DNA of 64,000 nucleotides. Source: Malacoraja senta (lineage: Eukaryota). A program made the translations under genes and the position numbers. This document shows, in pieces, positions 3,410 to 63,894 of this stretch. The notes below the pieces were generated by a model that ran no database searches, had not been told where the DNA came from, and was given only the letters and a program-made list of their open reading frames with translations. Numbering within the stretch: position 1 is the first letter of the stretch; every line of letters begins with the position of its first letter. The DNA lies in the NCBI GenBank assembly GCA_038087875.1, contig CM075994.1, positions 744,001-808,000 on the forward strand. The letters are read 5' to 3'.

Positions 3410-4010
3410 GTCATAACAAGAGGAGTCGAGTATGTGAGCAAAGAGGTCCTTCTGCAGTGGTACAGGGCACTAGTGAGACGACACCTGGAGTATTGTGAGC
3501 AGTTTTGGTCCCCTTATTTGAGGAAGGAAATTCTTGCTATTGAGGGAGTGCAGCGTAGGTATACAAGGTTAATTCCCCGGATGGCGGGACTGTCATATGC
3601 TGAGAGAATGGTGCGGCTGGGCTTATATACTCTCGAATTTAGATGAGAGGGGATCTTTTTTAACATATAAGATTATTAAGGGTTTGGACATGCTAGAGGC
3701 AGGACACGTGTTGGGGGCGTCCAGAACCAGGGGCCACAGTTTAAGACTGAGGGGTAAGCCATTTAGAACGGAGATGAGAAAACACCTTTTCACACAGAGA
3801 GCTGTGATTCTGTGGAATTCTCTGCCTGTGGAGGCTGGTTCTCTGGATACTGTCAAGAGAAAGCTAGATCGGGCTCTTAAAGATAGCGGAGTCAGGGGAT
3901 ATGTTGAGAAGGCAGGAACGGAGTACTGATTGGGGATGATCAGCCATGGTCACATTGAATGGCGGTGCTAGTTCGACGGGCCGAATGGCCCACTCCTGCG
4001 TTTATTCTCT
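3410..4010 (+). mobile_element. Older 5'-truncated CR1 3' fragment
   Basis: Frameshifted RT C-terminus (EYCEQFWSP, RTRGHSL, LWNSLP, EKAGTEY) followed by a CR1 3' UTR and TCTATAG tail. Confidence 0.88.
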
Positions 4011-4155
4011 ATAGAAACATTGAAATAATATTCCATTTCGTGTCCCGTTGTGAAACAGTGAATTCAGTGACTGCAGTTTATGTTATTTACTCCGTGCAGA
4101 CGAGATTTCTCCCCGCTTCGAATGGACCCAATGAGAACAAAGTTTGTAAAGAACA

Positions 4156-5508
4156 AATGGCTCAATGGTTCATTGGTTCAATGGCTCTATGGTTCAACGA
4201 TTCAATGGCTCAATGGTTCAATGGCTTAATGGCTAAATGGCTCAATGGCTCTATGGTTCAACGATTCAATGGCTCAATGGTTCAATGGCTCCATGATTCA
4301 ATGGCTCGATGGCTCAATGGTTCAATGATTCAATGATTCAATGATTCAATGATTCCAAATTTCTCAATGATTCAATGGCTCAATGGTTCAATGATTCAAT
4401 GGTTCAATTATTTAATGGTTCAGTGGTTCAATGGTTCAATGATTCAGTGATTCAATGATTCAATGGCTCAATCGTTCAATGGCTCAACGGTTCAATGGCT
4501 CAATGGCTCAACGGTTCAACGGTTCAATGATTCAATGATTCAATGATTCAATGAATCAATCGTTCAATGGCTCTATGGCTCAATGGCTCAATGGCTCAAC
4601 GGTTCAATGATTCAATGATTTAATGATTCAATGATTCAATGGCTCAATGGTTCAATGGTTCAATGGCTCAATGGTTCAATGATTCAATGATTCAAAATTT
4701 CTCAATGATTCAATGATTCAACGATTCCATGATTCAATGGTTCAATGGTTCGATGTTTTGATGGCTCAATGATACAATTGTTCAATGATTCGATGGTTCA
4801 ATGATTCGATGATTCAATGGTTCAATGGTTCAATGGCTCAATGGCTCAATAGCTCAACGGTTCAATGATTCAATGATCCAATGATTCATTGGTTCAATGG
4901 TTCTGTGGTTCAATGATTCAATTAATGTTATTTACTCCGTGCAGACGAGATTTGTCCCCGCTTCGAATGGACCCAATGAGAACAGAGTTTGTGATCAACC
5001 AGATTAAAGGACAAATGGCTCAATGATTCAATGGTTCAATGGCTCAATGGCTCAATCGTTCAATGGTTCAATGATTCAATGGCTCAATCGTTCAATGATT
5101 CAATGATTCCTTGTTTCAATGGTTCAATGGCTTTTGGTCTGAGTGCAGGTAGATGGGACTAGGTGAGAGTAAGCGTTCGGCACGGACTACAAGGGCCGAG
5201 ATGGCCTGTTTCCTTGCTGTAATTGTTATATAGTTATATGGTTATAATGGTTCAATGGTTGAATGATTCAATGGTTCAATGGCTTATTGGTTCAATGGCT
5301 CAATAATTCAATGAGTCAATGATTCAATGATTCAAAGGCTCAATAGTTCAATTGTTCAATGATTCAATGATTCAAAGGCACAATGGTTCAATGGATCATT
5401 GGTTCAATGATTCAATGGCTCAATGGTTCAATGATTGAATGGTTCAATGGCTCAATGGCTCAATGGCTGACTGGTTCAATGATTCAATGGTTCACTGGCT
5501 GAATGGTT
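4156..5508. repeat. Octamer minisatellite (TTCAATGG/CTCAATGG/TTCAATGA), resuming at 10501-10580 after the CR1 insertion
   Basis: Read directly. It is interrupted by a duplicated ~85-bp spacer (~4927-5012) and a short LINE 3'-end relic (~5137-5245). Confidence 0.96.
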
Positions 5509-5513
5509 CACTG

Positions 5514-6131
5514 ACAGAGGTCCGAAAGCCGTTGGAGAGTTCGCTGAGGGAGGAGCTACAACCGAGCGGTAGGACTTAAAAAGGAGCGCGGGGGCTTGTT
5601 CCTTACAGAGGTCCGAAAGCCGTTGGAGAGGTCGCTGAGGGAGGAGCTACAACCGAGCGGTAGGACTTAAAAAGGAGCGCGGGGGCTTGTTCCTTACAGA
5701 GGTCCGAAAGCCGTTGGAGAGGTCGCTGAGGGAGGAGCTACAACCGAGCGGTAGGACTTAAAAAGGAGCGCGGGGGCTTGTTCCTTACAGAGGTCCGAAA
5801 GCCGTTGGAGAGGTCGCTGAGGGAGGAGCTACAACCGAGCGGTAGGACTTAAAAAGGAGCGCGGGGGCTTGTTCCTTACAGAGGTCCGAAAGCCGTTGGA
5901 GAGGTCGCTGAGGGAGGAGCTACAACCGAGCGGTAGGACTTAAAAAGGAGCGCGGGGGCTTGTTCCTTACAGAGGTCCGAAAGCCGTTGGAGAGGTCGCT
6001 GAGGGAGGAGCTACAACCGAGCGGTAGGACTTAAAAAGGAGCGCGGGGGCTTGTTCCTTACAGAGGTCCGAAAGCCGTTGGAGAGGTCGCTGAGGGAGGA
6101 GCTACAACCGAGCGGTAGGACTTAAAAAGGA
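5514..6131 (+). repeat. 91-bp tandem monomers (~6.8 copies) forming the CR1 5' end
   Basis: ACAGAGG starts recur at 5514, 5605, 5696, 5787, 5878, 5969 and 6060. The copies are identical except for one substitution in the first. Confidence 0.97.
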
Positions 6132-6245
6132 ACCCAAATCGGCAACGTTCCACTTCAAAAACAAGTGGGTTTGAGGAAGCCGCTGATTGGTGGACGCAGA
6201 TAAGAGAGAGCAGCTGATTGGGAGTCAGATCCCTGCTGATTGTAC

Positions 6246-6325
6246 TGTATTGTAGCAGTTTGTTTTGTATTGTAGCAGTTTGTTTTGTATTGTAGCAGTT
6301 TGTTTTGTATTGTAGCAGTTTGTTT
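6246..6325 (+). repeat. 20-bp tandem repeat x4 (TGTATTGTAGCAGTTTGTTT) in the CR1 5' UTR
   Basis: Read directly from the sequence. Confidence 0.95.
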
Positions 6326-6351
6326 TATATTCTATCCAGGGTAAGGGGAGT

Positions 6352-7287
6352 ATGACGGCCAGGGCAGTTTACTGTTCTGGATGTCAGATGTGGGAAGTCA
6401 TGGAGTCTGTTAGCCCTCCAGACGTCCACATCTGCGCCAGGTGTATCGAGATGGGGCTCCTAATGGACCGTATTAGGAACCTGGAGCAGCAGCTCGATGA
6501 CCTCCGTCTGGTCAGGGAGAGCGAGGAAGTCATTGAGAGGAGTTACAGGGATGTGGTCACTCCAACACCACAGGAGGCAGGCAAGTGGATCACGGTTGGG
6601 AGAGGCAAGGGGCACAGGCAGGGACTAGAGAGTACCCCGGTGGCTGTACACCTTGACAATAAGTACTCCTGTTTGAGCACTGTTGGGGTGGACAGCCTAC
6701 CTGGGGGTAGCGACAGCGGCCGGGCCTCCGGTATAGAGACCGGTCCTGTTGCTCAGAAGGGTAAGGAAAAGAAGAGGAGGGCAATATTAATAGGGGACTC
6801 TATAGTTAGGGGGTCAGACAGGCGATTCTGTGGACGCAGTCGGGAGACCCGGATGGTAGTTTGCCTCCCTGGTGCCAGGGTCTGTGATGTGTCCCAACGT
6901 ATCCAAGACATCCTGAAAGGGCAGGGAGAGGAGCCCGAGGTCGTGATACATATAGGTACCAATGACATAGGTAAAAAAAGAGAAGAGGTCCTGAAAGGAG
7001 AATTTAGGGAGTTAGGAGGGGAGTTAAAGAGAAGGACAGCAAAGGTAACAATCTCGGGATTACTGCCTGTACCACGCGACAGTGAGAGTAGGAATGGAGC
7101 GAGGTGGAGGATAAATGCGTGGCTGAAGGACTGGTGCAGAAGGCAGGGATTCAAATTTCTGGATCATTGGGACTTCTTTTGTGGAAGGTTCGACCTGTAC
7201 AAAAAGGATGGGTTGCACTTGAACCTGAGGGGGACCGATATCCTGGCGGGGAGATCTGCAAAGGCTACTGGGGAGACTTTAAACTAG
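6352..7287 (+). CDS. CR1 ORF1p: N-terminal zinc-finger/coiled coil plus SGNH/GDSL esterase-like domain
   Basis: CxxC...CxxC, heptad LEQQLDDLR, and GDSIVR, PGARV, HIGTND and DGLHLN blocks typical of CR1 ORF1 esterases. Confidence 0.92.
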   Translation: MTARAVYCSGCQMWEVMESVSPPDVHICARCIEMGLLMDRIRNLEQQLDDLRLVRESEEVIERSYRDVVTPTPQEAGKWITVGRGKGHRQGLESTPVAVHLDNKYSCLSTVGVDSLPGGSDSGRASGIETGPVAQKGKEKKRRAILIGDSIVRGSDRRFCGRSRETRMVVCLPGARVCDVSQRIQDILKGQGEEPEVVIHIGTNDIGKKREEVLKGEFRELGGELKRRTAKVTISGLLPVPRDSESRNGARWRINAWLKDWCRRQGFKFLDHWDFFCGRFDLYKKDGLHLNLRGTDILAGRSAKATGETLN

Positions 7288-10200
7288 AATGGTTGGGGGG
7301 AGGGACTCAAATAGAGAATGCTATTAGACAGTGTGTGAGGCAGGAGGCAGAGAAGGAAAGCACTCAGACCCAACATGTAGGGGGGAAAGAAGAAAACAAT
7401 AATAAAGAGAGAATAAGAGGTGGTGGGGTTCTTAAATGGGTGAGCAGAGAAACAGAGGGGTGTAAAATGCGGGCGGAAGCAATAGGTAGCAAGGTGAAAG
7501 GTAAAAGTGGCAGGCAGACAAATCCAGGACAAAAATCAAAAAGAGCCACTTTTCAACATAATTGTATAAGGGGTAAGAGCGTTGTAAAAACAAGTCTGAA
7601 GGCTTTGTGTCTCAATGCAAGGAGCATTCGTAATAAGGTGGATGAGTTGAACGTGCAGATAGCAATTAATGATTATGATATAGTTGGGATCACGGAGACA
7701 TGGCTCCAAGGTGACCAAGGCTGGGAGCTGAACATCCAGGGATATTCAATATTCAGGAGGGATAGAGAGAAAGGAAAAGGAGGTGGGGTGGCGTTGCTGG
7801 TTAGAGAGGAGATTAACGCAGTGGAAAGGAAGGACATTAGCTTGGAGGATGTGGAATCGGTATGGGTAGAGCTGCGAAACACTAAGGGGCAGAAAACGCT
7901 GGTGGGCGTTGTGTACAGGCCACCTAGCAGTAGTAGTGAAGTTGGGGATGGCATCAAACAGGAAATTAGAAATGCGTGCAACAAAGGCAAAACAGTTATA
8001 ATGGGTGACTTCAATCTACATATAGATTGGGTGAATCAAATTGGCAGGGGTGCTGAGGAAGAGGATTTCTTGGAATGTATGAGGGATAGTTATCTAAACC
8101 AACATGTAGAGGAACCAACGAGAGAGCAGGCTATTCTAGACGGGGTATTGAGTAATGAGGAAGGGTTAGTTAGCAGACTTGTTGTGCGTGCCCCCTTGGG
8201 CAAGAGTGATCATAATATGGTAGAGTTCTTCATTAGGATGGAGAGTGACATTGTTAATTCAGAAACAACGGTTCTGAACTTAAAGAAAGGTAACTTTGAG
8301 GGTATGATACATGAATTGGCCAAGATTGACTGGCAATTAGTTCTAAAAGGGTTGACGGTGGATATGCAATGGAAGGCATTTAAAGACTGCATGGATGAAC
8401 TACAAAAATTGTTCATCCCAGTTTGGCAAAAGAATAAATCAAGGAAGGTAGTGCATCCGTGGATAACAAGGGAAATCAGGGATAGTATCAAAGCAAAAGA
8501 TGATGCGTACAAATTAGCCAGAAAAAGCAGCATACCAGAGGACTGGGAGAAATTCAGAGACCAGCAGAGGAGGACAAAGGGCTTAATTAGGAAAGGGAAA
8601 ATAGATTATGAAAGGAAACTGGCAGGGAACATAAAAACTGACTGCAAAAGTTTTTATAGATATGTGAAGAGAAAGAGATTAGTTAAATCAAATGTAGGTC
8701 CCTTGCAGTCAGAAACAGGTGAATTGATCATGGGGAACAAGGATATGGCAGACCAATTGAATAACTACTTTGGTTCCGTCTTCACTAAGGAAGACATAAA
8801 TAATCTGCCGGAAATAGCAGGGGGCCGCGGGTCAAAGGAGATGGAGGAACTGAGTGAAATCCAGGTTAGTCGGGAAGTGGTGTTGGGTAAATTGAATGGA
8901 TTAAAGGCCGATAAATCACCAGGGCCAGATAGGCTGCATCCCAGAGTACTTAAGGAAGTAGCTCCAGAAATAGTGGATGCATTAGTGATAATTTTTCAAA
9001 ACTCTTTAGATTCTGGAGTAGTTCCTGAGGATTGGAGGGTAGCAAACGTAACCCCGCTTTTTAAGAAGGGAGGGAGAGAGAAAACGGGGAATTACAGACC
9101 AGTTAGTCTAACATCGGTAGTGGGGAAACTGCTAGAGTCAGTTATTAAAGATGGGATAGCAGCACATTTGGAAAGTGGTGAAATCATTGGACAAAGTCAG
9201 CATGGATTTACGAAAGGTAAATCGTGTCTGACGAATCTTATAGAATTTTTCGAGGATGTAACTAGTAGAGTGGATAGGGGAGAACCAGTGGATGTGTTGT
9301 ATCTGGACTTTCAGAAGGCTTTCGACAAGGTACCACATAAGAGATTAGGATACAAACTTAAATCACACGGTATTGGGGGTTCAGTATTGATGTGGATAGA
9401 GAACTGGCTGGCAAACAGGAAGCAAAGAGTAGGAGTAAACGGGTCCTTTTCACAATGGCAGGCAGTGACTAGTGGGGTACCACAAGGCTCAGTGCTGGGA
9501 CCCCAGCTATTTACAATTTATATTAATGATCTGGACGAGGGAATTGAAAGCAACATCTCCAAGTTTGCGGATGACACTAAGCTGGGGGGCAGTGTTAGCT
9601 GTGAGGAGGATGCTAGGAGACTGCAAGGTGACTTGGATAGGCTGGGTGAGTGGGCAAATGTTTGGCAGATGCAGTATAATGTGGATAAATGTGAGGTTAT
9701 CCACTTTGGTAGCAAAAACGGGAAGGCAGACTATTATCTAAATGGTGGCCGATTAGGAAATGGGGAGATGCAGCGAGACCTGGGTGTCATGGTACACCAG
9801 TCATTGAAAGTAGGCATGCAGGTGCAGCAGGCAGTGAAGAAAGCGAATGGTATGTTGGCCTTCATAGCAAGAGGATTTGAGTATAGGAGCAGTGAGGTTC
9901 TACTGCAGTTGTACAGGGTCTTGGTGAGACCACACCTGGAGTATTGCGTACAGTTTTGGTCTCCAAATCTGAGGAAGGACATTATAGCCATAGAGGGAGT
10001 GCAGAGAAGGTTCACCAGACTGATTCCTGGGATGGCAGGACTTTCATATGAAGAAAGACTGGATAGACTTGGCTTATACTCGCTAGAATTTAGGAGATTG
10101 AGAGGGGATCTTATAGAAACGTACAAGATTCTTATGGGGTTGGACAGGCTAGATGCAGGAAGATTGTTCCCGATGTTGGGGAAGTCCAGGACAAGGGGTC

Positions 10201-10403
10201 ACAGCTTAAGGATAAGGGGAAAATCCTTTAAGACCGAGATGAGGAAAAACTTTTTCACACAGAGAGTGGTGAATCTCTGGAACTCTCTGCCACAGAGGGT
10301 AGTTGAGGCCAGTTCATTGGCTATATTTAAGAGGGAATTAGATGTGGCCCTTGTGGCTAAAGGGATCAGGGGGTATGGAGAGAAGGCAGGTACGGGATAC
10401 TGA
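7278..10403 (+). CDS. CR1 ORF2p: APE endonuclease plus reverse transcriptase (start uncertain: -1 frameshift at 7278-7284, or ATG at 7467)
   Basis: Endonuclease motifs NARS, ITETW, MGDFN and SDH; RT motifs LDFQKAFD, GVPQGSVLGP and FADD. No internal stops. Confidence 0.93.
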   Translation, partial: FKLEWLGGGTQIENAIRQCVRQEAEKESTQTQHVGGKEENNNKERIRGGGVLKWVSRETEGCKMRAEAIGSKVKGKSGRQTNPGQKSKRATFQHNCIRGKSVVKTSLKALCLNARSIRNKVDELNVQIAINDYDIVGITETWLQGDQGWELNIQGYSIFRRDREKGKGGGVALLVREEINAVERKDISLEDVESVWVELRNTKGQKTLVGVVYRPPSSSSEVGDGIKQEIRNACNKGKTVIMGDFNLHIDWVNQIGRGAEEEDFLECMRDSYLNQHVEEPTREQAILDGVLSNEEGLVSRLVVRAPLGKSDHNMVEFFIRMESDIVNSETTVLNLKKGNFEGMIHELAKIDWQLVLKGLTVDMQWKAFKDCMDELQKLFIPVWQKNKSRKVVHPWITREIRDSIKAKDDAYKLARKSSIPEDWEKFRDQQRRTKGLIRKGKIDYERKLAGNIKTDCKSFYRYVKRKRLVKSNVGPLQSETGELIMGNKDMADQLNNYFGSVFTKEDINNLPEIAGGRGSKEMEELSEIQVSREVVLGKLNGLKADKSPGPDRLHPRVLKEVAPEIVDALVIIFQNSLDSGVVPEDWRVANVTPLFKKGGREKTGNYRPVSLTSVVGKLLESVIKDGIAAHLESGEIIGQSQHGFTKGKSCLTNLIEFFEDVTSRVDRGEPVDVLYLDFQKAFDKVPHKRLGYKLKSHGIGGSVLMWIENWLANRKQRVGVNGSFSQWQAVTSGVPQGSVLGPQLFTIYINDLDEGIESNISKFADDTKLGGSVSCEEDARRLQGDLDRLGEWANVWQMQYNVDKCEVIHFGSKNGKADYYLNGGRLGNGEMQRDLGVMVHQSLKVGMQVQQAVKKANGMLAFIARGFEYRSSEVLLQLYRVLVRPHLEYCVQFWSPNLRKDIIAIEGVQRRFTRLIPGMAGLSYEERLDRLGLYSLEFRRLRGDLIETYKILMGLDRLDAGRLFPMLGKSRTRGHSLRIRGKSFKTEMRKNFFTQRVVNLWNSLPQRVVEASSLAIFKRELDVALVAKGIRGYGEKAGTGY

Positions 10404-11320
10404 GTTGGATGATCAGCCATGATCGTATTGAATGGCGGTGCAGGCTCGAAGGGCCGAATGGCCTACTCCTGCACCTAATTTCTATGTATCTATGTATCTA
10501 TGAATGGTTGTATGATTCAAAGGTTCAATGATTCAATGATTCAATGGTTGAAAGGTTCAATGGTTCAATGATTCAATGATGATCCAATTCATGTTTTTTT
10601 TTAAATCTGGAACAATAAAAGTGTCTATCTGTCTCCCTAGTAGAAGCATACAGTAGGAATAATTTCGTTTTGTTTGTTGCCACGTTAACGGAGGTACAGT
10701 TAAAACTTATTGTTGCGTGCTATCCAGTCAGCGGAAAGACAATACATGATTACAATGGAGCCGTCCACATTGTACAGATACACGATAAGGGAATAACGTT
10801 TCGTGCAAGGTTAATACAGTAAATTCCGTTAAAAAATAGTCCGACGGTCACCAATGAGGTAGATAGTAATTTAACAGTTGGGAAGGAACTATCCCTGAAA
10901 CTTGAGGTGTGTGTTTTCATATTTCTTTACATTTTGCTCGATGGGAGACGGGAGAAAAGGGGAGAGAGGAGAACTCCCTATTCTCTAATTGCCAATTTGG
11001 AGAGTCCAATTATCCTACAAAAATTTTAGGGTGTGGAAGGAAATGCAGCACCGAGAGGAAACCCACGCGGCAACATAGAGATTAGATGATCTTGCCATCG
11101 TGTTTGGCACGGTCATTGTGGCACGGACATTGTGTTCCAGTGCTAAGTTCCAAGTTCTAAGTGCAGGACATAGGGTTAATTATCACAACGTTTAAGAAAC
11201 ATTTATACACGTACATGGATCGGACAGGTTTGCAGGGATATGGACCAAATGCAGGCCGGTGGGACTAGTGTAGACGGAGCATGGTGGCCATTGTGAGCAG
11301 GTTTGGCTGAAGGGTACACC

Positions 11321-14300
11321 TCAGGTTCCTCGTACATCTTTCCCCCTCACCTTAACACCTATGCACAGAGCAGCGAAGGGGAACGTGAGCAGGGCGTTCA
11401 ACTGCGCTCTGAACCTGCTCTGGGTGAGGGCGTACACACAGGTGTTTGTGCAGGAACCGAGGCACTTCAGCAACATCGCGACTTGCACGGCCGCGTACAG
11501 CGAGCGGGGGCCGCGGAACATCACCGTCGCGCTCACCCCGACCCAGGCGTGGATCACCGTGATGGGAACGGCCAGCGCCACGAAGCTCCCGGAGACGGCG
11601 AACAGCGGGGCGACCGAAGCCCTCCGGCTCCTGACCTCGGGGTCGTTGCCCCCGCCCACCTGGCAAGAGCTCTTCAAAGCCAGTCGGGCCCTGCTGGCCC
11701 CTAGAATGTGTCTGGCGGTCAGCGAATTCAGAAGCAGCAGGGCGGGGATGGGGAGGAGGGTGTTGAGGAGGAAGGAGGCCCAGCGATGGGCGGACCACAG
11801 CGGGGATTCCAGGTGACCCGGCACAGGGCAGCAACCGTAGGCCACACGGTGAACGGTGAAACAGGGCCGGTAGCGGAGAGGCCAGGGCGCGTTCGTCAAC
11901 ACACTGACCATTCCTACCGCCGCTAGCACCATGGCCGCCGTTCTCTCGGTGCAATACGTGCGCCTGAGCTTCCGGCAACAGATAGCCACGAAACGGTCAC
12001 ACGTGAAGGTCACGGTGAACCAGGTATTGAGCTGGAAACTGAAGCCTTGCAGGTAGGCACTGAGCCGGCACACGGGCGTGTAGCGGAGCGGAGACCCGGG
12101 GAAGTGGTACCTGAAAGGACAAGTAACCTCGGGGTGACTCAGCGGGTCGGGCAGCGGCTCGTGAAAGAAAAATAGATACAAAACGCTGGATGTAACTCAG
12201 CGGGTCAGGCAGCAAATGGAGGAAAGATAAACACAAAACGCTGGAATAACACAGCGGGTCGGCACGGTGGCGCAGCGGTAGAGTTGCTGCCAGAGACCCG
12301 GGTTCGATTGTGACTACGGGTGCAGTCTGCCCGGAGATTGGCCGTTCTCCCCGTGACATCGTGGGTATTCTCCGGGTGCCCAAGCTTTCCTCTAACTTTT
12401 GCAATCAGACCAGTGGAGTGTGGGAGCAATCCGGAGCACCTGGATAAAACCCACGCAGTCACAGGCAGAAGGTTCATACTACACACAGACACACCAAAGT
12501 CAGAGTCGAACCCAGGTCTTTAGTGCTGTGCGGGGAACAGGAGCGGGGAAGCGTGGGAAGAGAGAGGGGTGGTGTGGGGTAGAATTGAATGGGCTTTGCG
12601 GGAGGTTGGTGAAAGGTTACCTAAAATCGGAGTATTCAATGTTCATACCGTTGGGTTGTAAGATGCTGTTGCTCCAGTTTGCGTGTGGCCTCACTCTGGC
12701 AGTGAAGGAGGCCCAGGATAAAAAAAGGTAAGTGTGGTAACGGGAAGGGAATTGTTAAAAACCGGGAGATCTAGCAGGTCTTGGCGAACCGAGCGCAAGT
12801 GTTCGGCGAAATTTTCGCCCAGTCTACACATTGTCTTGCCGATGTCCAGGAGGCCACATCGGGAACTGGGATATCTCCCGGTGGCCAAACACCCGACCAG
12901 TCTGACTGTCCCTTTGATTAAATATTTATCTCTCTTTGCTTCGTTGTCCACTTCCCCGAGCTAACACTGGTCCATTCTACATTTCCCTTGATCAGAATAC
13001 CACTTAACCCCCCACCCCCCTTCCCAAATCTTTGCACATCCCCAAACCTTTCCATTCGTCACTTTAATTTAATGTATCTTGTTTTTTTTATGACTGTTAG
13101 CAGAATACTTCCCCTCCTGGGATTAGTAAAGTTCTATCGTATTGTATGGTAACAGCGTCCCATTTGATGTCTCGTTTTCACACCTTTCCTTTTCATATCT
13201 CTGCGTGTCCCCCTCCACTGACTCTCAGTCTGAAGAAGGCTCTCGACCCGAAACGTCACCCATTCTTTCTATCCGCAGATGCTGCCTGTCCCGCCGCGTT
13301 ACTCCAGCATTTTGTGCCTATCTTCGGCGTAAACCAGCATCTGCAGTTCCTTCCTACACATGCAGTAGATGAGGTTGGAGCAGGTATCCAGTACGTACCT
13401 GACTATCTGGCTGACTATGACGTTGAAGACCAACACCATGAGATCACCCATCGCCATGGCCATCATGTAGCAGGTAATGTCTTTGGAGAGACCGCACTTT
13501 CCTCGAAACAGGATCACCAAGGACATCAAGTTGGCTGTAAGGAAACACACAACGGCGAGAAGCAAGAGGGAAATGGTATAGAGGCGTAGGGGACTGCATC
13601 TGTAGGGAACGGCAATAAATGTAACCAGAATTTCAGCAGTCCTGAACTACTTTCTACCTCATTGGTGACACTCGGACCATGTGTGACCGGACTTTGATGG
13701 CTTTACCTTGCACTGAACGTCATTCCCTTATCGTGTATATGTACACTGGAAATGGCTCGATTGTAATCGCGATTTCCGCTGACTGGTTCGCACGCAACAA
13801 AAGCTTTTCACTGTACCTCGGTACACGTGATAATGAACTAAATTCAACTGAACTGAATACGATCCAAGTCATTTGGGTATTTCTTAACCGGAGATTGACA
13901 GGCTCTTGATCAATAAGGTTGTTAAAGGATTGGGGGAAAAGGCAGGAGAATGGGGGTGATCAGGGGAAGATAGATCAGCCATGACTGAATGTTACAGTAG
14001 ACTTGACGGGCTCTTCACATTCACTCCATCCAGGCCATACACAACACCCGAGGTCAGGACTGAACCCAGGTCTTTTGCGATGTGAATCAGCAACTCTCCC
14101 TCTGCGCCACGGTGCTACACCTAATTTTAGACAATAAGAGTGAAAACAGGCCATTCGGCCCGTCGGGCCTGCGCAGACCAGCGACTACCTGCCCAATGTT
14201 AGAAGCAATCCGTCTTCCCTTAGCATTGAAACCAAGATTACAAGAGTGAACAATCTCATCGTTGCCCTGACTCTGACCACTGACTGGCACAATGGATGCA

Positions 14301-15045: not shown

Positions 15046-17996
15046 AGATTCAGATTCAGAATCAGATTCAACTTTATTGTCATTGTGCAGTGTACAGTAC
15101 AGAGACAACGAAATGCAGCTGGCATCTCCCTAGAAGAGCGACATAAGTATGAGCAATAAATCAATCTAATAAATCCTGGTGGGAGGAGTGTCCGGGGGGG
15201 GGGGTGATTGGCTGTCACCGAGGTACAGTGTTGAGTAGTGTAACAGCCGCAGGGAAGAAGCTGTTCCTGGACCTGCTGGTCCGGCAACGGAGAGACCTGT
15301 AGCGCCTCCCGGATGGTAGGAGGGTAAACAGTCTGTGGTTGGGGTGAGAGCAGTCCATGACGATGCTGAGCGCCCTTCGCAGACAACGCTTGCTTTGGAC
15401 AGACTCAATGGTGGGGAGTGAGGAACCGGTGATGCGTTGGGCAATTTTCACCACCCTCTGCAGGGCTTTCCGGTCGGAGACAGAGCAGTTGCCATACCAT
15501 ACTGTGATGCAATTGGTAAGGATGCTCTCGATGGTGCAGCGGTAGACGTTCACCAGAATCTGAGGAGACAGATGGACCTTCTTTAGTCTCCTCAGGAAGA
15601 AGAGACGCTGGTGAGCCTTCTTGACCAGAGTTGAGGTATTGTTGGTCCAAGAGAGGTCATCGGAGATGTTGACCCCCAGGAACCTGAAGCTGGAAACACG
15701 TTCCACCTCCGTCCCGTTAATGTGGATGGGGGTGTGCGTGCCGCCCCTAGACTTCCTGAAGTCTACAATGAGCTCTTTGGTCTTCTTGGAGTTAAGGGCC
15801 AGGTTGTTGTCAGTGCATCATGCTGCTAGGAGCTGGATCTCCTCCCTATAGGCCGACTCATCGTTGTTGCTGATGAGGCCAATCACCGTTGTATCATCTG
15901 CATACTTGATGATGGTGTTAGTACCATGTACAGGTGTGCAGTCGTAGGTGAAGAGGGAGTAGAGGAGGGGGCTCAGCACACAGCCCGGTGGAACGCCGGT
16001 GTTCAGGGTGAGGGTTGAAGAGGTGTGCTTGTCTAACCTAACAGACTGGGGTCTGTTGGTTAGAAAGTCCAGTATCCAGTTGCAGAGGGAGGGGTCACCG
16101 AGCTTGGTGATCAGTTTAGAGGGTATGATGGTGTTGAATGCTGAGCTGTAATCGATGAACAGCATTCTTACGTAAGTGTCTCTGTTGTCGAGGTGGGAGT
16201 GGGCGGAGTGAAGTGCCGTTGAGATGGCATCCTCCGTACTCCTGTTCTTGCATTAGGCAAACTGATAGGGATCCAATGTGGGGGGTAGGCAGCCTTTGAG
16301 GTGTGCCAGGACCAGCCTCTCGAAGCACTTGGCGATGATGGGAGTAAGTGCAACTGGGCGGAAGTCGTTGTAGCTTGCCGGAGTGGAGTGTTTTGGCACC
16401 GGCACGATGGAGGTGGATTTAAGGCACGTGGGCACAACTGCTTGAGCAAGTGACAGGTTGAAGATGTCAGTCCAGACGTCTGTCAGCTGCGCAGCACAGG
16501 CCCTGAGGACGCGCCCGGGGATGCCGTCAGGGCCAGCAGCCTTACGTGCATTAGTCCTACTCAATGCCACGTACACGTCGTAGGCGGTGAGTGAGAGGGG
16601 CTGGTGATCGGCAGGGAGCACCGCCTTGATGGCCAACTGCCGATTGTCCCTGCTGAAGCGGCCATAGAAGTGGTTAAGCTCCTCAAGGAAGGAGGAGTTG
16701 CTGGATGTGGGGGTGGTGTTGGTGGGTCTAAAGTCCGTGATGGCCTGGATGCCTTGCTACATGCGTCGGGGGTCGGAGTTGTTGTTGAAGTGCTCCTCAA
16801 TCCTGAGCTTATGGCAGTGCATGGCCTTCTTTATGCCCTTCTTCAGGTTAGTCCTGGATGAACTATAGGCTCGGGCATCGCCTGACCTGAAAGCGGTGTC
16901 CCGTGCTTTCAGCAGTAGCCTGACCTCGCTGTTCATCCATGGCTTCTGATTCGGGAATATGCTCACCCGTTTGAGGGAGGTGACACTGTTGATGGTGGAG
17001 TTTATATAGTCCCGAACAGAGGATGTATAGGAGTCAATGTCCGTGTGGGAGTCAAGGGTGGCCTGGGCTGCAAACGCCTTCCAGTCAGTGTTTCCAAAAC
17101 ACTGCTGAAGTGTGGAGTCCGCATCCTCTGACCAGACTTTAACTGTCCTCACAGTGGGTTTAACCCGTCTGATGAGTGGGGAGTACTTTGGGAGCAGGAA
17201 CAATGAGAGGTGATCAGACTGTCCAAGGTGGGGGAGGGGGACGGCTTTGTAAGCTTCAGCCATGTTGGTGTAGACTTTGTCCAGTGTCTTCTCTTCTCTA
17301 GTGGCGAAGGAGACATGTTGGTGGAATTTGGGGAGTACAGTCTTCAGGTTGGAGTGATTGAAGTCACCCGCAACAATGAAGGCTGCCTCGGGGTTGTGAG
17401 TCTGTTGTTTGCTAATGGCAGTATGCAGATCTTTCATTACAAGCTTGGCATTAGCATCAGGAGGAATATAGGCTGCAGTCACAACAGTGGAGGTTAACTC
17501 TCTGGGCAGATAGAACGGTCTGCATCTAACCAAGATGATGGTGGTGTCCGTGCACCATGCTTTGTTTACATAAATGCACAGACCTCCACCTCTGGTCTTA
17601 CCGGAGTCTATTGTCCTGTCCACTCGGAGTAAATGCCGCCCCGTTAGCTGGTTGGCGTTGTCAGGAACGTCGGTGTTGAGCCAAGTTTCAGTGAGGATCA
17701 AGATGCTGCAGTCTTTGATCCAGTTGTGGGAGGTGATCCTTAGCCGGAGTTCGTCCATTTTGTTTGCCAGTGAGCGCACGTTGGCGAGGAAAAGGCTAGG
17801 AATCGCTAGCCTATGTGGGACTAGCTCTAACCTGGCCTTTAACCTACCTGTGCGTCCCCGGCGGTGCTTCCGTTCACGTCGCCGTCTGTTGGTGCTTCCG
17901 GTCGGCCGAGCTGGCTTGGTGGGCGCTGGTGTTCTGCCACGCCGCGACTACGCTGGCGTTGTACTAGTTTACTAATTTAGTTTGGTTAGTGTAATC
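15046..17996 (-). mobile_element. Rex1/Babar-type LINE copy upstream of gene A (several stops and deletions)
   Basis: APE+RT ORF broken into pieces ([21 protein letters not shown] end); (TGAATC)n 3' tail at 15046-15070. Confidence 0.9.
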
Positions 17997-19964: not shown

Positions 19965-20570
19965 GTCATAACAAGAGGAGTCGAGTATAGGAGCAAAGAG
20001 GTCCTTCTGCAGTGGTACAGGGCACTAGTGAGACGACACCTGGAGTATTGTGAGCAGTTTTGGTCCCCTTATTTGAGGAAGGAAATTCTTGCTATTGAGG
20101 GAGTGCAGCGTAGGTATACAATGTTAATTCCCGGGTTGGCGGGAGTGTCATATGCTCAGAGAATGGTGCGGCTGTGCTTGTATACTCTGGAATTTAGATG
20201 AGAGGGGATCTTATTGAAACATATAAGATTATTAAGGGTTTGGACATGCTAGAGGCAGGACACATGTTGGGGGAGTCCAATACCAGGGGCCACAGTTTAA
20301 GACTGAGGGGTAAGCCATTTAGAACGGAGACGAGAAAACACCTTTTCACACAGAGAGCTGTGATTCTGTGGAATTCTCTGCCTGTGGAGGCTGGTTCTCT
20401 GGATACTGTCAAGAGAAAGCTAGATCGGGCTCTTAAAGATAGCGGAGTCAGGGGATATGGTGAGAAGGCAGGAACGGAGAACTGAATGGGGATGTTCAGC
20501 CATGGTCACTTTGAATGGCGGTGCTAGCTCGACGGGCCGAATGGCCCACTCCTGCGTCTATTCTCTATAG
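19965..20570 (+). mobile_element. CR1 3' fragment (unit copy)
   Basis: Paralog of 3410-4010. Confidence 0.87.
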
Positions 20571-22890: not shown

Positions 22891-25800
22891 TCAGGTTCCT
22901 CGTACATCTTTCCCCCTCACCTTAACACCTGTGCACAGAGCAGCGAAGGGGGACGTGAGCAGGGTGTTCAACTGCGCTCTGAACCTGCTCTGGGTGAGCG
23001 CGTACACACAGGTGTTTGTGCAGTAACCGAGGCACTTCAGCAACATCGCGACTTGCACGGCCGCGTACAGCGAGCGGGGGCCGAGGAACATCACCGTCGC
23101 GCGCACCCTGACCCAGGCTTGGATCACCGTGATGGGAACGGCCAGCGCCACGAAGCTCCCGGAGACGGCGAACAGCAGGGCGACCGACGCCCTCCGGCTC
23201 CTGACCTCGGGGTCGTCGCCCCCGCCCCCCTGGCAAGAGCCCTTCAAGGCCAGTCGGGCCCTGCTCGCCCCTATGATGTGTCTGGCGGTCAGCGAATTCA
23301 GCAGCAGCAGGGCGGGGATGGGGAGGAAGGTGTTGAGGAGGTTGGAGGTCCAGCGATGGGCGGACCACAGCAGGGATTCCAGGTGACCCGGCACAGGGCA
23401 GCAACCGTAGGCCACACGGTGAACGGTGTGACAGGGCCGGTAGCGGAGAGGCAAGGGCGCGTTCGTCAACACACTGACCATTCCTACCGCCGCTAGCACC
23501 ATGGCCGCCGTTCTCTCGGTGCAATACGTGCGCCTCAGCTTCCGGCAACAGATAGCCACGAAACGGTCACACGTGAAGAACACGGTGAACCAGGTATTGA
23601 GCTGGAAACTGAAGCCTTGCAAGTAGGCACTGAGCCGGCACACGAGCGTGTAGCGGAGCGGAGACCCGGGGAAGTGGTACCTGAAAGGACAAGAAACGCC
23701 GGGGTGACTCAGCGGGGCAGGCAGCGGCTCTGGAAAGAAAATAGATACAAAACGCTGGATGTAACTCAGCGGGTCAGGCAGCAAATGGAGGAAAGATAAA
23801 CACAAAACGCTGGAATAACGCAGCGGGTCGGCACGGTGGCGCAGCGGTAGAGTTGCTGCCAGAGATCCGGGTTCGATTCTGACTACGGGTGCAGTCTGCC
23901 CGGAGATTGGCCGTTCTCCCCGTGACATCGTGGGTATTCTCCGGGTGCCCAAGGTTTCCTCTAACTTTTGCAATCAGACCAGTGGAGTGTGGGAGCAATC
24001 CGGAGCATCCGGATAAAACCCACGCAGTCACAGGCAGAATGTTCATACTACACACAGACACACCAAAGTCAGAGTCGAACCCAGGTCTTTAGTGCTGTGC
24101 AGGGAACAGGAGCGGGGAGGCGTGGGAAGAGAGAGGGGTGGTGTGGGGTAGAATGGAATGGGCTTTGGGGGAGGTTGGTGAAAGGTTACCTAAAATCGGA
24201 GTATTCAATGTTCATACCGTTGGGTTGTAAGATGCTATTCCTGCAATTTGCGTGTGGCCTCACTCTGGCAGTGAAGGAGGCCCAGGATAAAAGGCCAGAG
24301 CGGTAACGGGAAGGGAATGGTTAAAAACCGGGAGATCCAGCAGGTCTTGGCGGACCGAGCGCAAGAGTTCGGCGAAATTTTCGCCCAGTCTACACATTGT
24401 CTTGCCGATGTCCAGGAGGCCACATCGGGAACTGGGATATCTCCCGGTGGCCAAATACTTTTACTCCTCCTCCCATTCGCACACGTACCCATTCTGTCAG
24501 GGGCCTCCTCCATTGTCAGAGTGAGGCCCAGCGCAAACAGGAGCAACAGCACCTCGTGTTTCGCTTGGGCAGCTTACACCCCAGCTTGACTTCTCTAACT
24601 CCAAGTGACCCTTGCTTTTCCTCTCTCTCCATCCCATCCTAATTCCCCGACCAGTCTGACTGTCCCTTTGATTAAATATTTATCTCTCTTTGCTTCGTTG
24701 TCCACTTCCCCGAGCTAACAATGGTCCATTCTACTTTTCCCTTGATCAGAATACCTCTTCACCCCAACCCCCCTTCCCAAATCTTTGCACATCCCCAAAC
24801 CTTTCCATTCGTCACTTTAATTTAATGTATCTTGTTTTTTTATGACTGTTAGCAGAATACTTTCCCTCCTGGGATTAGTAAAGTTCTATCGTATTGTATG
24901 GTAGCAGCATCCCATTTGATGTCTCGTTTTCACACCTTTCCTTTTCATATCTCTGCGTGTCCCGCTCCACTGACTCTCAGTCTGAAGAAGGCTCTCGACA
25001 TGAAACCTCACCCATTCTTTCTATCCGCAGATGCTGCCTGTCCCGCCGCGTTACTCCAGCATTTCGTGTCTATCTTCGGCGTAAACCAGCATCTGCAGTT
25101 CCTTCCTACACATGCAGTAGATGAGGTTGGAGCAGGTATCCAGTACGTACCTGACTATCTGGCTGACTATGACGTTGAAGACCAACACCATGAGATCACC
25201 CATCGCCATGGCCATCATGTAGCAGGTGATGTCTTTGGAGAGACCGCACTTTCCTCGAAACAGGATCACCAAGGACATCAAGTTGGCTGTAAGGAAACAC
25301 ACAACGGCGAGAAGCAAGAGGGAAATGGGATAGAGGCGTGGGGACTGCATCTGTAGGGACCGGCAATAAATGTAACAATAATTTCAGCAGTCCTGAACTA
25401 CTTTCTACCTCATTGGTGACACTCGGACCGAGTGTGACCGGACTGATGTCTTTACCTTGCACTGAACGTCATTCCCTTATCATGTATCTGCACACCGGAA
25501 ATGGCTCGATTGTAATCGCGATTTCCGCTGACTGGTTCGCACGCAACAAAAGCGTTTCACTGTACCTCGGTACACGTGATAATGAACTAAATTCAACTGA
25601 ACTGAATACGATCCAAGTCATTTGGGTATTTATTAACCGGAAATTGACAGGCTCTTGATCAATAAGGTTGTTAAAGGATAGGGGGAAAAGGCAGGAGAAT
25701 GGGAGTGATCAGGGGAAGATAGATCAGCCATGACTGAATGTTACAGTAGACTTGACGGGCTCTTCACATTCACTCCATCCAGGCCATACACAACACCCGA

Positions 25801-26798: not shown

Positions 26799-29700
26799 AG
26801 ATTCAGATTCAGATTCAACTTTATTGTCATTGTGCAGTCTACAGTATAGAGACAACGAAATGCAGTTAGCATCTCCGTAGAAGAGCGACATAAATATGAG
26901 CAGTAAACAAATAAATCTAATAAATCCTTGTGGGATGAGTGTCCGGGGGTTGGGGGGGGGGGTGATTGGCAGTCACCGAGGTACAGTGTTGAGTAGTGTA
27001 ACCGCCGCAGGGAAGAAGCTGTCCCTGGACCTGCTGGTCCGGCAACGGAGAGACATGTAGCGCCTCCCGGATGGTAGGAGGGTAAACAGTCTGTGGTTGG
27101 GGTGAGAGCAGTCCTTGGCGATGATGAGCGCCCTTCGCAGACAACGCTTGCTTTGGACAGACTCAATGGTGGGGAGTGAGGAAACGGTGATGCGTTGGGC
27201 AATTCTCACCACCCTCTGCAGTGCTTTCCGGTCGGAGACAGAGCAGTTGCCATACCATACTGTGATGCAGTTGGTAAGGATGCTCTCGATGGTGCAGCGG
27301 TAGACGTTCACCAGAATCTGAGGAGACAGATGGACCTTCTTTAGTCTCCTCAGGAAGAAGAAACGCTGGTGAGCCTTCTTGACCAGAGTTGAGGTATTGT
27401 CGGTCCAAGAGAGGTCATCGGAGATGTTGACCCCCAGGAACCTGAAGCTGGAAACACGTTCCACCTCCGTCCCGTTAATGTGGATGGGGGTGTGCGTGCC
27501 GCCCCTAGACTTCCTGAAGTCTACAATGAGCTCCTTGGTCTTCTTGGAGTTAAGGGCCAGGTTGTTGTCAGTGCACCACGCTGCTAGGAGCTGGACCTCC
27601 TCCCTATAGGCCGACTCATCGTTGTTGCTGATGAGGCCAATCACCGTTGTATCATCTGCATACTTGATGATGGTATTAGTACCAAGTACAGGTGTGCAGT
27701 CGTAGGTGAAGAGGGAGTAGAGGAGGGGGCTCAGCACACAGCCCTGTGGAACGCCGGTGTTCGGGGTGAGGGTTGAAGAGGTGTGCTTGTCTAACCTAAC
27801 AGACTGGGGTCTGTTGGTTAGAAAGTCCAGTATACAGTTGCAGAGGGAGGGGTCGATGCCCAGGTCACCGAGTTTGGTGATCAGTTTAGAGGGTATGATG
27901 GTGTTGAATGCTGAGCTGTAATCGATCAACAGCATTCTTACGTAAGTGTCTCTGTTGTCGAGGTGGGAGAGGGCGGAGTGAAGTGCCGTTGAGATGGCAT
28001 CCTCCGTACTCCTGTTCTTGCGGTAGGCAAACTGATAGGGATCCAATGTGGGGGGTAGGCAGCCTTTGAGGTGTCCCAGGACCAGCCTCTCGAAGCACTT
28101 GGCGATTATGGGAGAAAGTGCAACTGGTCGGAAGTCGTTGAGGCTCGCCGCAGTGGAGTGTTTTGGCACCGGCACGATGGAGGTGGATTTAAGGCACGTG
28201 GGCACAACTGCTTGGGCAAGTGACAGGTTGAAGATGTCAGTCCAGACGTGTGTCAGCTGCGCAGCACAGGCCCTGAGGACGCGGCCGGGGATGCCATCGG
28301 TGCCAGCAGCCTCACGTGCATTAGTCCTACTCAGTGCCACGTACACGTCGTAGGGGGTGAGTGAGAGGGGCTGGTGATCGGCAGGGAGCGCCGCCTTGAT
28401 GGCCAACTGCCGATTGTCCCTATCGAAGCGGTCATAGAAGTGGTTAAGCTCCTCAAGAAAGGAGGCGTTGCTGGATGTGGGGGTGGTGTTGGTGGGTCTG
28501 AAGCCCGTGATGGCCTGAATGCCTTGCCACATGCGTCGGGAGTCGGAGTTGTTGTTGAAGTGCTCCTCAATCCTGAGCTTATGGCAGTGCTTGGCCTTCT
28601 TTATGCCCTTCTTCAGGTTAGCCCTGGATGAACTATAGGCTCGGGCATCGCCTGACCTGAAAGTGGTGTCCCGTGCTTTCAGCAGTAGCCTGACCTCGCT
28701 GTTCATCCATGGCTTCTGATTCGGGAATATGGTCACCCGTTTGAGGGAGGTGACACTGTTGATGGTGGAGTTTATAAAGTCCAGAACAGAGGATGTATAG
28801 GAGTCAATTTCCGTGTGGGAGTCAAGGGTGGCCTGGGCTGCAAACGCCATCCAGTCAGTGTTTCCAAAACACTGCTGAAGTGTGGAGTCCGCATCTTCTG
28901 ACCAGACTTTAACTGTCCTCACAGTGGGTTTAACCCGTCTGATGAGTGGGGAGTACTTTGGGAGCAGGAACAATGAGAGGTGATCAGACTGTCCAAGGTG
29001 GGGGAGGAGGACGGCTTTGTAAGCTTCAGCCATGTTGGTGTAGACTTTGTCCAGTGTCTTGTCTTCTCTAGTGGCGAAGGAGACATGTTGGTGGAATTTG
29101 GAGAGTGCAGTCTTCAGGTTGGAGTGATTGAAGTCACCCGCAACAATGAAGGCTGCCTCGGGGTTGTGAGTCTGTTGTTTGCTAATGTCAGTATGCAGAT
29201 CTTTCATTGCAAGCTTGGCATTAGCATCAGGAGGAATATAGGCTGCAGTCACAACAGTGGAGGTAAACTCTCTGGGCAGATAGAACGGTCTGCATCTAAC
29301 CAAGAGGAACTCTAGGTTAGCTGAGCAGTGACTCTCGATGATGGTGGTGTCCGTGCACCATGCTTTGTTTACATAAATGCACAGACCTCCACCTCTGGTC
29401 TTACCGGAGTCTATTGTCCTGTCCGCTCGGAGTAAATGCCGCCCCGATAGCTGGATGGCGCTGTCAGGAACGTCGGTGTTGAGCCAAGTTTCAGTGACGA
29501 TCAAGATGCTGCAGTCTTTGATCCAGTTGTGGGGGGGGGGTGATCCTCAGCCGGAGTTCGTCCATTTTGTTTGCCAGTGAGCGCACGTTGGCGAGGAAAA
29601 GGCTAGGAATCGCTAGCCTGTGTGGGACTAGCTCTAACCTGGCCTTTAACCCACCTCTGCGTCCCCGGCGGTGCTTCCGTTCACGTCGCCGTCTGTTGGT

Positions 29701-31769: not shown

Positions 31770-32372
31770 TCATGACAAGAGGAGTCGAGTATAGGAGCAA
31801 AGAGGTCCTTCTGCAGTGGTACAGGGCACTAGTGAGACGACACCTGGTGTATTGTGAGCAGTTTTGGTCCCCTTATTTGAGGAAGGAAATTCTTGCTATT
31901 GAGGGAGTGCAGCGTAGGTATACAAGGTTAATTCCCGCGATGGCGGGACTGTCATATGCTGATAGAATGGTGCGGCTGGGCTTGTATACTCTGGAATTTA
32001 GATGAGAGGGGTTCTTATTGAAACATATAAGATTATTAAGGGTTTGGACATGCTAGAGGCAGGACACATGTTGGGGGAGTCCAGAACCAGGGGCCACAGT
32101 TTAAGACTGAGGGGTAAGCCATTTAGAACGGAGACGAGAAAACACCTTTTCACACAGAGAGCTGTGATTCTGTGGAATTCTCTGCCTGTGGAGGCTGGTT
32201 CTCTGGATACTGTCAAGAGAAAGCTAGATCGGGCTCTTAAAGATAGCGGAGTCAGGGGATATGGTGAGAAGGCAGGAACGGAGTACTGATTGGGGATGAT
32301 CAGCCATGGTCACATTGAATGGCGGTGCTAGCACGACGGACCGAATGGCCCACTCCTGCGTCTATTCTCTAT
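31770..32372 (+). mobile_element. CR1 3' fragment (unit copy)
   Basis: Paralog of 3410-4010. Confidence 0.87.
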
Positions 32373-43281: not shown

Positions 43282-43885
43282 GTCATAACAAGAAGAGTCG
43301 AGTATAGGAGCAAAGAGGTCCTTCTGCAGTGGTACAGGGCACTAGTGAGACGACACCTGGAGTATTGTGAGCAGTTTTGGTCACCTTATTTGAGGAAGGA
43401 ATTTCTTGCTATTGAGGGAGTGCAGTGTAGGTATACAAGGTTAATTCCCGGGATGGCGGGACTGTCATATGCTGAGAGAATGGTGCGGCTGGGCTTGTAT
43501 ACTCTGGAATTTAGATGAGAGGGCATCTTATTGAAACATATAAGATTATTAAGGGTTTGGACATGCTAGAGGCAGGACACATGTTGGGGGAGTCCAGAAC
43601 CAGGGGCCACAGTTTAAGACCGAGGGGTAAGCCATTTAGAACGGAGATGAGAAAACACCTTTTCACACAGAGAGCTGTGATTCTGTGGAATTCTCTGCCT
43701 GTGGAGGCTGGTTCTCTGGATACTGTCAAGAGAAAGCTTGATCGGGCTCTTAAAGATAGCGGAGTCAGAGGATGTGGTGAGAAGGCAGGAACGGAGTACT
43801 GATTGGGGATGATCAGCCATGGTCACATTGAATGGCGGTGCTAGCTCGACGGGCCGAATGGCCCACTCCTGCGTCTATTCTCTAT
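43282..43885 (+). mobile_element. CR1 3' fragment (unit copy)
   Basis: Paralog of 3410-4010. Confidence 0.87.
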
Positions 43886-54347: not shown

Positions 54348-54950
54348 GTCATAACAAGAGGAGTCGAGTATATGAGCAAAGAGGTCCTTCTGCAGTGGTA
54401 CAGGGCACTAGTGAGACGACACCTGGAGTATTGTGAGCAGTTTTGGTCCCCTTATTTGAGGAAGGAAAGTCTTGCTATTGAGGGAGTGCAGCGTAGGTAT
54501 ACAAGGTTAATTCCCGAGATGGCGGGACTGTCATAAGCTGAGAGAATGGTGCGGCTGGGCTTGTATACTCTGGAATTTAGATGAGAGGGGATCTTATTTA
54601 AACATATAAGATTATTAAGGGTTTGGACATGCTAGAGGCAGGACACATGTTGGGGGAGTCCAGAACCAGTGGCCACAGTTTAAGACTGAGGGGTAAGCCA
54701 TTTAGAACGGAGATGAGAAAACACCTTTTCACACAGAGAGCTGTGATTCTGTGGAATTCTCTGCCTGTGGAGGCTGGTTCTCTGGATACTGTCAAGAGAA
54801 AGCTAGATCGGCCTCTTAAAGATAGCGGAGTCAGGGGATATGGTGAGAAGGCAGGAACGGAGTACTGATTGGGGATGATCAGCCATGGTCACATTGAATG
54901 GCGGTGCTAGTTCGACGGGCCGAATGGCCCACTCCTGCGTCTATTCTCTA
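54348..54950 (+). mobile_element. CR1 3' fragment (unit copy)
   Basis: Paralog of 3410-4010. Confidence 0.87.
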
Positions 54951-55094
54951 TAGAAACATTGAAATAATATTCCATTTCGTGTCCCGTTGTGAAACAGTGA
55001 ATTCAGTGACTGCAGTTTATGTTATTTACTCCGTGCAGACGAGATTTCTCCCCGCTTCGAATGGACCCAATGAGAGCAAAGTTTGTAAAGAACA

Positions 55095-63147: not shown

Positions 63148-63748
63148 GTCATAACAAGAGGAGTCGTGTATATGAGCAAAGAGGTCCTTCTGCAGTGGTA
63201 CAGGGCATTAGTGAGACGACACCTGGAGTATTGTGAGCAGTTTTGGTCCCCTTATTTGAGGAAGGAAATTCTTGCTATTGAGGGCGTGCAGCGTAGGTAT
63301 ACAAGGTTAATTCCCGGGATGGCGGGACTGTCATATGCTGAGAGAATGGTACGGCTGGGCTTGTATACTCTGGAATTTAGATGAAAGGGGATCTTATTGA
63401 ATCATATAAGATTATTAAGGGTTTGGACATGCCAGAGGCAGGACACATGTTGGGGGAGTCCAGAACCAGGGGCCACAGTTTAAGACTGAGGGGTAAGTCA
63501 TTTAGAACGGAGATGAGAAAACACCTTTTCACACAGAGAGCTGTGATTCTGTGGAATTCTCTGCCTGTGGAGGCTGGTTCTCTGGATACTGTCAAGTGAA
63601 AGACAGATCGGGCTCTTAAAGATAGTGGAGTCAGGGGATATGGTGAGAAGGCAGGAACGGAGTACTGATTGGGGATGATCAGCCATGGTCACATTGAATG
63701 GCGGTGCTAGTTCGACGGGCCGAATGGCCCACTCCTGCGTCTATTCTC
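63148..63748 (+). mobile_element. CR1 3' fragment (unit copy)
   Basis: Paralog of 3410-4010. Confidence 0.87.
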
Positions 63749-63894
63749 TATAGAAACATTGAAATAATATTCCATTTCGTGTCCCGTTGTGAAACAGTGA
63801 ATTCAGTGACTGCAGTTTATGTTATTTACTCCGTGCAGACGAGATTTCTCCCCGCTTCGAATGGACCCAATGAGAACAAAGTTTGTAAAGAACA

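Follow-up and report, generated by a model that had tools for sequence, protein, structure and literature searches.

A conserved slippery heptamer at the end of ORF1 in a vertebrate CR1 retrotransposon is consistent with −1 frameshifting into ORF2

The stretch of DNA analysed here (the window: 64,000 nt of Malacoraja senta contig CM075994.1, positions 744,001 to 808,000) contains a single full-length CR1 long interspersed nuclear element (LINE) at ~5515–10500, set in an 8-nt satellite within one ~11.5-kb unit. Its first open reading frame (ORF1) ends ACT TTA AAC TAG, which gives the phase T_TTA_AAC immediately before the stop codon, and its second (ORF2) lies in the −1 frame. The feature is genuine and kept in relatives. 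What the sequences establish is the heptamer with its phase, an open −1 frame, the conservation of all three in DNA, a coupled residue pattern among ORF1 proteins and a conserved G-rich run. Programmed −1 frameshifting probably joins ORF1 and ORF2 into a fusion of 1350 amino acids (aa); both the slippage itself and a role of the fusion as the working ORF2 protein are suggested by the sequence. The element is organised as follows.

5515..6351, + strand: 5' untranslated region (UTR) of CR1, with ~seven 91-nt monomers followed by four 20-nt repeats; 5' boundary approximate
6352..7287, + strand: ORF1, 311 aa, from ATG 6352 to TAG 7287, with N-terminal Cys pairs and an SGNH esterase domain at ~6790–7236
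7278..7284, + strand: slippery heptamer T_TTA_AAC, in phase with the final two ORF1 codons
7285..7287, + strand: ORF1 stop TAG, directly adjoining the heptamer
7291..7304, + strand: G-rich run, candidate stimulator; G at 7292 and 7295–7299 is kept in relatives
7278..10403, + strand: ORF2 in the −1 frame, with a ~105-codon linker, an apurinic/apyrimidinic (APE) endonuclease from ~7596 and a reverse transcriptase (RT) at ~9072–9716
7467..7469, + strand: first in-frame ATG of ORF2, the start codon if ORF2 is reached by reinitiation
10404..10501, + strand: 3' UTR, ending in short 8-nt repeats without poly(A) and continuing into the flanking 8-nt satellite

The original prediction, made from this sequence, placed TTTAAAC (7278–7284) in X_XXY_YYZ register before the ORF1 stop, and reading the ORF1 codons confirmed this. 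As it also proposed, the −1 frame is ORF2 and stays open to 10403; the frame is open from 7092 onwards and encodes endonuclease and RT domains by Pfam (PF03372, PF14529, PF00078). About 100 ORF2 codons had been claimed ahead of the endonuclease, in agreement with an NARS motif that begins ~112 codons past the heptamer, and the G-rich run GGTTGGGGGGAGGG begins, as described, six bases past the heptamer, at 7291. The length of the predicted fusion, estimated before at ~1350 aa, was computed as 1350 aa. Two junction peptides had been put forward, of which the Leu-Asn form is possible, whereas the Thr-Phe-Lys form is a conceptual −1 translation only and not a ribosomal product; with tandem slippage, products at the site would read Leu-Asn or Leu-Lys.

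No other X_XXY_YYZ sequence is in phase among the 309 positions of ORF1 (ORF2 has one in 1039), and the + strand of the window contains TTTAAAC at two places. When bases were shuffled 20,000 times, the 60 codons between the stop and ATG 7467 stayed open in 1.2% of cases; the actual sequence has five stops in each of the other two frames over this stretch. The position of the heptamer at the ORF1 end is thus more than chance.

A metagenome scan yielded 24 related loci, of which 14 stop short of the junction and 10 reach the end of ORF1. All 10 contain N_TTA_AAC, with T as the first base in nine and G in one (G_TTA_AAC in locus L001), and TAG follows the heptamer in nine; the remaining one, the decayed copy L020, has AAG and was excluded from later counts, which comprise the window and nine loci. 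In this set TTAAACTAG is invariant (10/10), while third-base variation is seen in four other columns that are mostly Leu. Just 3–15% of Leu codons (3/113 to 14/96) in the six ORF2s counted are TTA. The preceding codon encodes Ala, Ser, Thr or Cys, yet it ends in T in nine rows and in G in one. ORF2 sits in the −1 frame in every locus where it is readable, and this frame is closed 2–4 codons upstream of the heptamer in seven of the nine loci, excluding an upstream start in those loci. Conservation, which the original prediction had proposed as a check, was therefore found for the heptamer, its phase and the −1 position of ORF2, and extends to the coupled residues in ORF1 tails described below.

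Searches of other collections yielded little. Viral contigs searched with four alignments contained no locus of this family; a single one was returned, L145, which looks like an unrelated SGNH gene and was rejected as a relative; 120 further viral-contig loci from a motif scan were likewise rejected, since none matches ORF1 or ORF2, indicating chance matches. No junction was found in genome contigs, where one search was empty and another returned one 741-nt piece starting downstream of the junction, and a search of plasmids and phages for junction DNA found nothing. Two raw-read runs gave 4 and 0 reads and were uninformative. Among the contigs of run X3, three joints, each present in one contig, leave out a net 141–147 nt in frame, ATG 7467 included, but their short anchors and ~0.1% of depth make them weak hints only. 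Ray/shark-type CR1 sequence also occurs in bacterial records (L146 1–741, from an Aeromonas assembly, and protein P0023, named Pseudomonas), most likely as host contamination.

To the DNA loci we added 225 ORF1 homologs, 86 from a first search (with the window protein in and the five weakest out) and 139 new among the best 150 of 15,963 hits. A DGxH-like motif is present in 185 of the 225, and in 169 it is followed by a tail of 22–45 aa, almost fixed at 26 aa in vertebrate-type proteins. These tails end in Asn in 125 cases, 96 of them as Leu-Asn, including named ray, shark and frog entries and likewise turtle and sturgeon entries. The dipeptides encoded by X_XXA_AAC are LN, GN and KN. After de-duplication at 70% tail identity, 59 of the 84 tails retained carry LN (39), GN (16) or KN (4), as compared with 3% of background windows for [LGKP]N.

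Because X_XXA_AAC requires it, the codon before the dipeptide must end in X. Among preceding residues with pyrimidine-only or purine-only codon ends, the ratio was 15:0 for LN and 0:11 for GN/KN (Fisher p 1e-7), and 12:0 against 0:6 (p 5e-5) in a stricter set at 55% identity, although these p-values are inflated because the homologs are kin. Without de-duplication there was one exception in 98, a Glu before LN that is consistent with G_TTA_AAC; in a control, positions 2–7 before LN were 22% purine-only. A quick, unfinished tree gave ~20 changes among the LN, GN and KN labels, including an FLN protein within a QGN group, indicating that the coupling arose more than once.

In 12 of the 16 KN proteins ORF1 runs 2–12 residues beyond the site, so that the motif is bound neither to the C-terminus nor to the stop. 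The next residue in all 12 (P0084, P0165, P0168, P0188, P0196, P0210, P0212, P0216, P0220, P0226, P0248 and P0249) is Ala, Gly or Glu, and the base after the putative A_AAA_AAC would therefore always be G. Among the 25 remaining tails, 11 have FF, FL, GF, NF or PF, as U-type heptamers would give, against a background of 2.6%, this dipeptide set having been picked after viewing the tails. Six relatives of L001 (P0073, P0075, P0076, P0127, P0139 and P0252) end in Ser-Asn instead of Leu-Asn; should their site still be slippery, its P-site triplet would be non-canonical.

Among proteins read in the −1 frame, Phe-Lys-Leu appears in entries from ray, stork and the sturgeon cluster, and in two families there is no Met between Phe-Lys-Leu and the endonuclease (3/4 and 3/3 members showing the region). 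The fused gene models P0035, P0054, P0083, P0093 and P0290 served as readouts of the −1 frame only and are not evidence for natural fusion. A search for longer proteins gave 22 hits, mostly unrelated esterases, with one ORF1–ORF2 gene model (P0093).

Of the two candidate stimulators suggested by the original prediction, the G-rich run is conserved in relatives and falls in the top 0.34% of G4Hunter windows in seven of the eight loci used for G4Hunter and quadruplex folding (L007 and L012 were excluded as too short). Counted from the first base of the heptamer, offsets 14, 17 and 20 are G in 10/10, 9/9 and 9/9 rows, all of them third positions of −1-frame codons. The other candidate, a stem formed at long range with CCCAAC at 7369, is not supported: it is present in the predicted fold, yet with z = −1.9 and 7/200 shuffles as good, and has no equivalent in relatives. 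No long-range partner for the G-run is common to the loci, and Rfam gave just two sub-threshold hits near the site (E 7 and 8.2). Luteovirus-type pairing of site-proximal RNA with the 3' terminus was found in none of the four elements with a 3' end; 3/15, 10/23, 12/14 and 7/13 control windows were as good as the 3'-end duplex. The stimulator might be a G-quadruplex of two tiers or else a single-stranded site to which a protein binds, with the neighbouring stop perhaps contributing. Protein binding has a precedent in PCBP-dependent arterivirus frameshifting, and natural use of quadruplexes for frameshifting was not known as of a 2016 review (PMC5009743).

If −1 frameshifting operates here, slippage on U_UUA_AAC would take a minority of ribosomes back by one base and past the UAG, to produce the predicted 1350-aa esterase–endonuclease–RT fusion, whereas most would stop at the UAG and release the ORF1 protein (ORF1p). 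The G-run would stimulate slippage, and the purpose would be to fix a high ratio of ORF1p to the ORF2 protein (ORF2p), as for Gag and Gag-Pol. U_UUA_AAC, G_GGA_AAC and A_AAA_AAC are among the shiftiest heptamers, and G_UU(A) is a natural variant (PMC5009743). In families that have a downstream ATG, it may add separately initiated ORF2p, so frameshifting and reinitiation may both be at work in some families.

A number of observations weigh against this explanation. Eight of the nine loci are bird-type, a label derived from similarity to a stork-annotated protein, and being related they are not independent, L001 being the distant element. The heptamers attributed to the GN, KN and F-type families are deduced from residues alone, and a few site picks (P0137, P0227 and P0229) are doubtful. 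ViennaRNA chooses a quadruplex at the G-run in just 2/8 loci, and neither folding of this copy (best z −1.9) nor comparison of relatives revealed a conserved stem or pseudoknot 3' of the site. Transposition is seemingly independent of ORF1 esterase activity (PMC13343379). An in-frame ATG lies between site and endonuclease in all seven DNA rows in which the endonuclease motif is reached in frame, at codons 64, 29 and 23 and, in four loci, at codon 5, where it starts 2 nt past the stop in a layout suited to reinitiation. Among close copies, the residue in the ORF2 frame is altered by six of the seven variants that lie between the stop and ATG 7467, such that variants upstream of 7467 look unconstrained at the protein level, and six of the eight from 7467 to 7600 are silent; these counts are among the variants listed, 40 of 114, some of which look private to this copy. 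Such a pattern would be expected if the protein starts at 7467, or if the linker only has to stay open; none of the seven listed variants between TAG and ATG 7467 creates a stop.

These ATG and variant data are what chiefly speaks for a different route, in which ORF2 is reached only by termination-reinitiation or by scanning, to ATG 7467 or to the codon just past the stop, and TTTAAACTAG together with the G-run is a conserved termination/reinitiation context; SART1 and L1 provide precedents (PMC5972666, PMC3894237). An ATG 2 nt after the stop occurs in 4/10 DNA rows (also in one of four sturgeon-cluster members and in P0388), the other six, this copy included, having TGG, GTG, TCG or GCG. We nevertheless consider this route improbable. 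The ATG position varies between codons 5 and 64. Four out-of-frame ATGs (7289, 7318, 7375 and 7436) precede ATG 7467, and the linker of two families lacks Met altogether. Reinitiation also leaves unexplained both the coupled X_XXA_AAC pattern and KN sites located 10–12 codons ahead of the stop.

The nearly fixed 26-aa tail of vertebrate-type proteins, and the kinship of many rows, would suit a Leu-Asn that is simply a C-terminal protein motif of the esterase, with the DNA match an inherited codon choice. This is very unlikely, since the penultimate residue can be L, G or K and the third base of the preceding codon is constrained accordingly, 10/10 loci use TTA, a rare Leu codon, and KN is internal in most KN proteins. 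Equally hard to credit is that ORF2 is expressed from a spliced transcript with the TAG as its 3' acceptor, or from an AUG inside the ORF1 end. The site does end in YAG, but it has no pyrimidine tract, and in some families Phe-Lys-Leu is followed by Ile, Asn or Thr, so that their stop cannot be TAG. As for an upstream start, in the two families without a linker Met the −1 frame is open and carries a gene-caller start inside ORF1, 26–30 codons upstream, which also counts against frameshifting; the −1 frame is, on the other hand, closed just upstream in most loci, as noted above, and this copy has no −1-frame ATG upstream of the heptamer. Programmed −1 frameshifting thus remains the explanation we favour for this element. 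That esterase-ORF1 CR1 LINEs across animals make a Gag-Pol-like fusion, stimulated without a pseudoknot by the G-run acting as an RNA G-quadruplex or a protein-binding site, is a bolder proposal that we hold as possible but doubtful.

The assignment of the element to CR1 agrees with its remaining features. The ORF1 esterase domain was recognised by Pfam (PF13472, E 3.5e-14), GDS, GTN and DxxH motifs are present, and a profile search matched PDB 4c1b (E 2.3e-43); among named ORF1 proteins the nearest come from Leucoraja (83%) and Mobula (76%), which points to a skate or ray as host. ORF2 is 43–45% identical over ~950 aa to loci L001, L002 and L011, which we also regard as CR1. The 3' UTR is followed by TATCTATG-type 8-nt repeats and no poly(A), and short 8-nt 3' repeats without poly(A) are a feature of vertebrate CR1 LINEs. 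The ~seven monomers of the 5' UTR (5515–6131) are near-identical and resemble those in the promoter of mouse L1. The intact CR1 is inserted into an 8-nt TTCAATGA-type satellite (4300–5514 and 10502–10590), the element's own 3' repeats also being 8 nt long, and no clear target-site duplication was seen around it in this satellite.

From 510 to 64000 the window is a tandem array of ~11.5-kb units, 92–97% alike over most blocks. Each unit contains a minus-strand 7tm_1 receptor ORF, identified by Pfam at 11321–12196, 22891–23973 and 57278–58363 and assigned by position at 34412–35269 and 45484–46269, and the array is a young cluster of receptor genes. A second LINE family (APE, RT and ALKBH8_N) lies on the minus strand at 26973–29546, with copies at 355–1464, 16757–17947, 38485–41282 and 49564–52191; it was duplicated with each unit and is broken differently in each, and no ORF1 was recognised upstream of its copies in the window. 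An older 600-nt piece of a CR1 3' end, ~75% identical to the intact element, occurs once per unit.

3411–4012, 19966–20568, 31770–32372, 43283–43885, 54349–54951 and 63149–63751: older CR1 3' pieces

We found no report of CR1 frameshifting in the literature as available to us; the original CR1 papers lie outside this search and may have noted the site. The word 'frameshift' is absent from the available main text of PMC3894237, PMC13343379, PMC3905857 (the ZfL2-1 structure), PMC4316615 and PMC4120745, its mentions in the available text of PMC4255032, PMC6609765 and PMC11835228 concern matters other than CR1 translation, and 'CR1' is absent from the first 300,000 characters of PMC5009743. That source does mention gag frameshifting in HeT-A, which, together with the TRE elements discussed below (PMC5911963), indicates that frameshifting in LINEs is not unheard of.

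How ORF2 of LINEs is translated is a question that PMC3894237 calls open, and in most vertebrates the CR1 group dominates among retrotransposons (PMC13343379). The conserved heptamer offers a 30-nt target that makes the question directly testable. If frameshifting is confirmed, the protein ratio of CR1 would be set in the manner of a retrovirus and ORF2p would bear an esterase at its N-terminus. Annotations that begin ORF2 with its first Met would then lack part of the protein, and the G-run would become a candidate for a new class of natural frameshift stimulator.

Viral −1 sites typically use a 3' pseudoknot or stem. At the CR1 junction, in contrast, no conserved stem was found, only the G-rich run. 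The likeness lies in the heptamers: U_UUA_AAC of the coronavirus infectious bronchitis virus (IBV) and G_UUA_AAC of equine arteritis virus are the same heptamers, in the same phase and with the polymerase in the −1 frame, and retroviral G_GGA_AAC and A_AAA_AAC belong to the class that the GN and KN families appear to use (PMC5009743). Zebrafish ZfL2-1 has an ORF1 esterase (PDB 4c1b) of the same SGNH fold family as CR1 ORF1 (PMC3905857). Mammalian L1 and silkworm SART1 share the two-ORF LINE layout and the need for little ORF2p, but they differ in relying on termination-reinitiation, with a 63-nt spacer or an overlapping stop-start and no fusion (PMC5972666, PMC3894237). The Dictyostelium elements TRE5-A and TRE3-A, of the APE-type non-LTR (non-long-terminal-repeat) group, are likewise two-ORF LINEs, and their ORF2 is stated to need a −1 frameshift; they differ in being amoebal, with an ORF1 described as of unknown function and no heptamer or stimulator given in the available text (PMC5911963). 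The element studied here, in contrast, is a vertebrate CR1 with an esterase ORF1 and a heptamer class kept across distant families.

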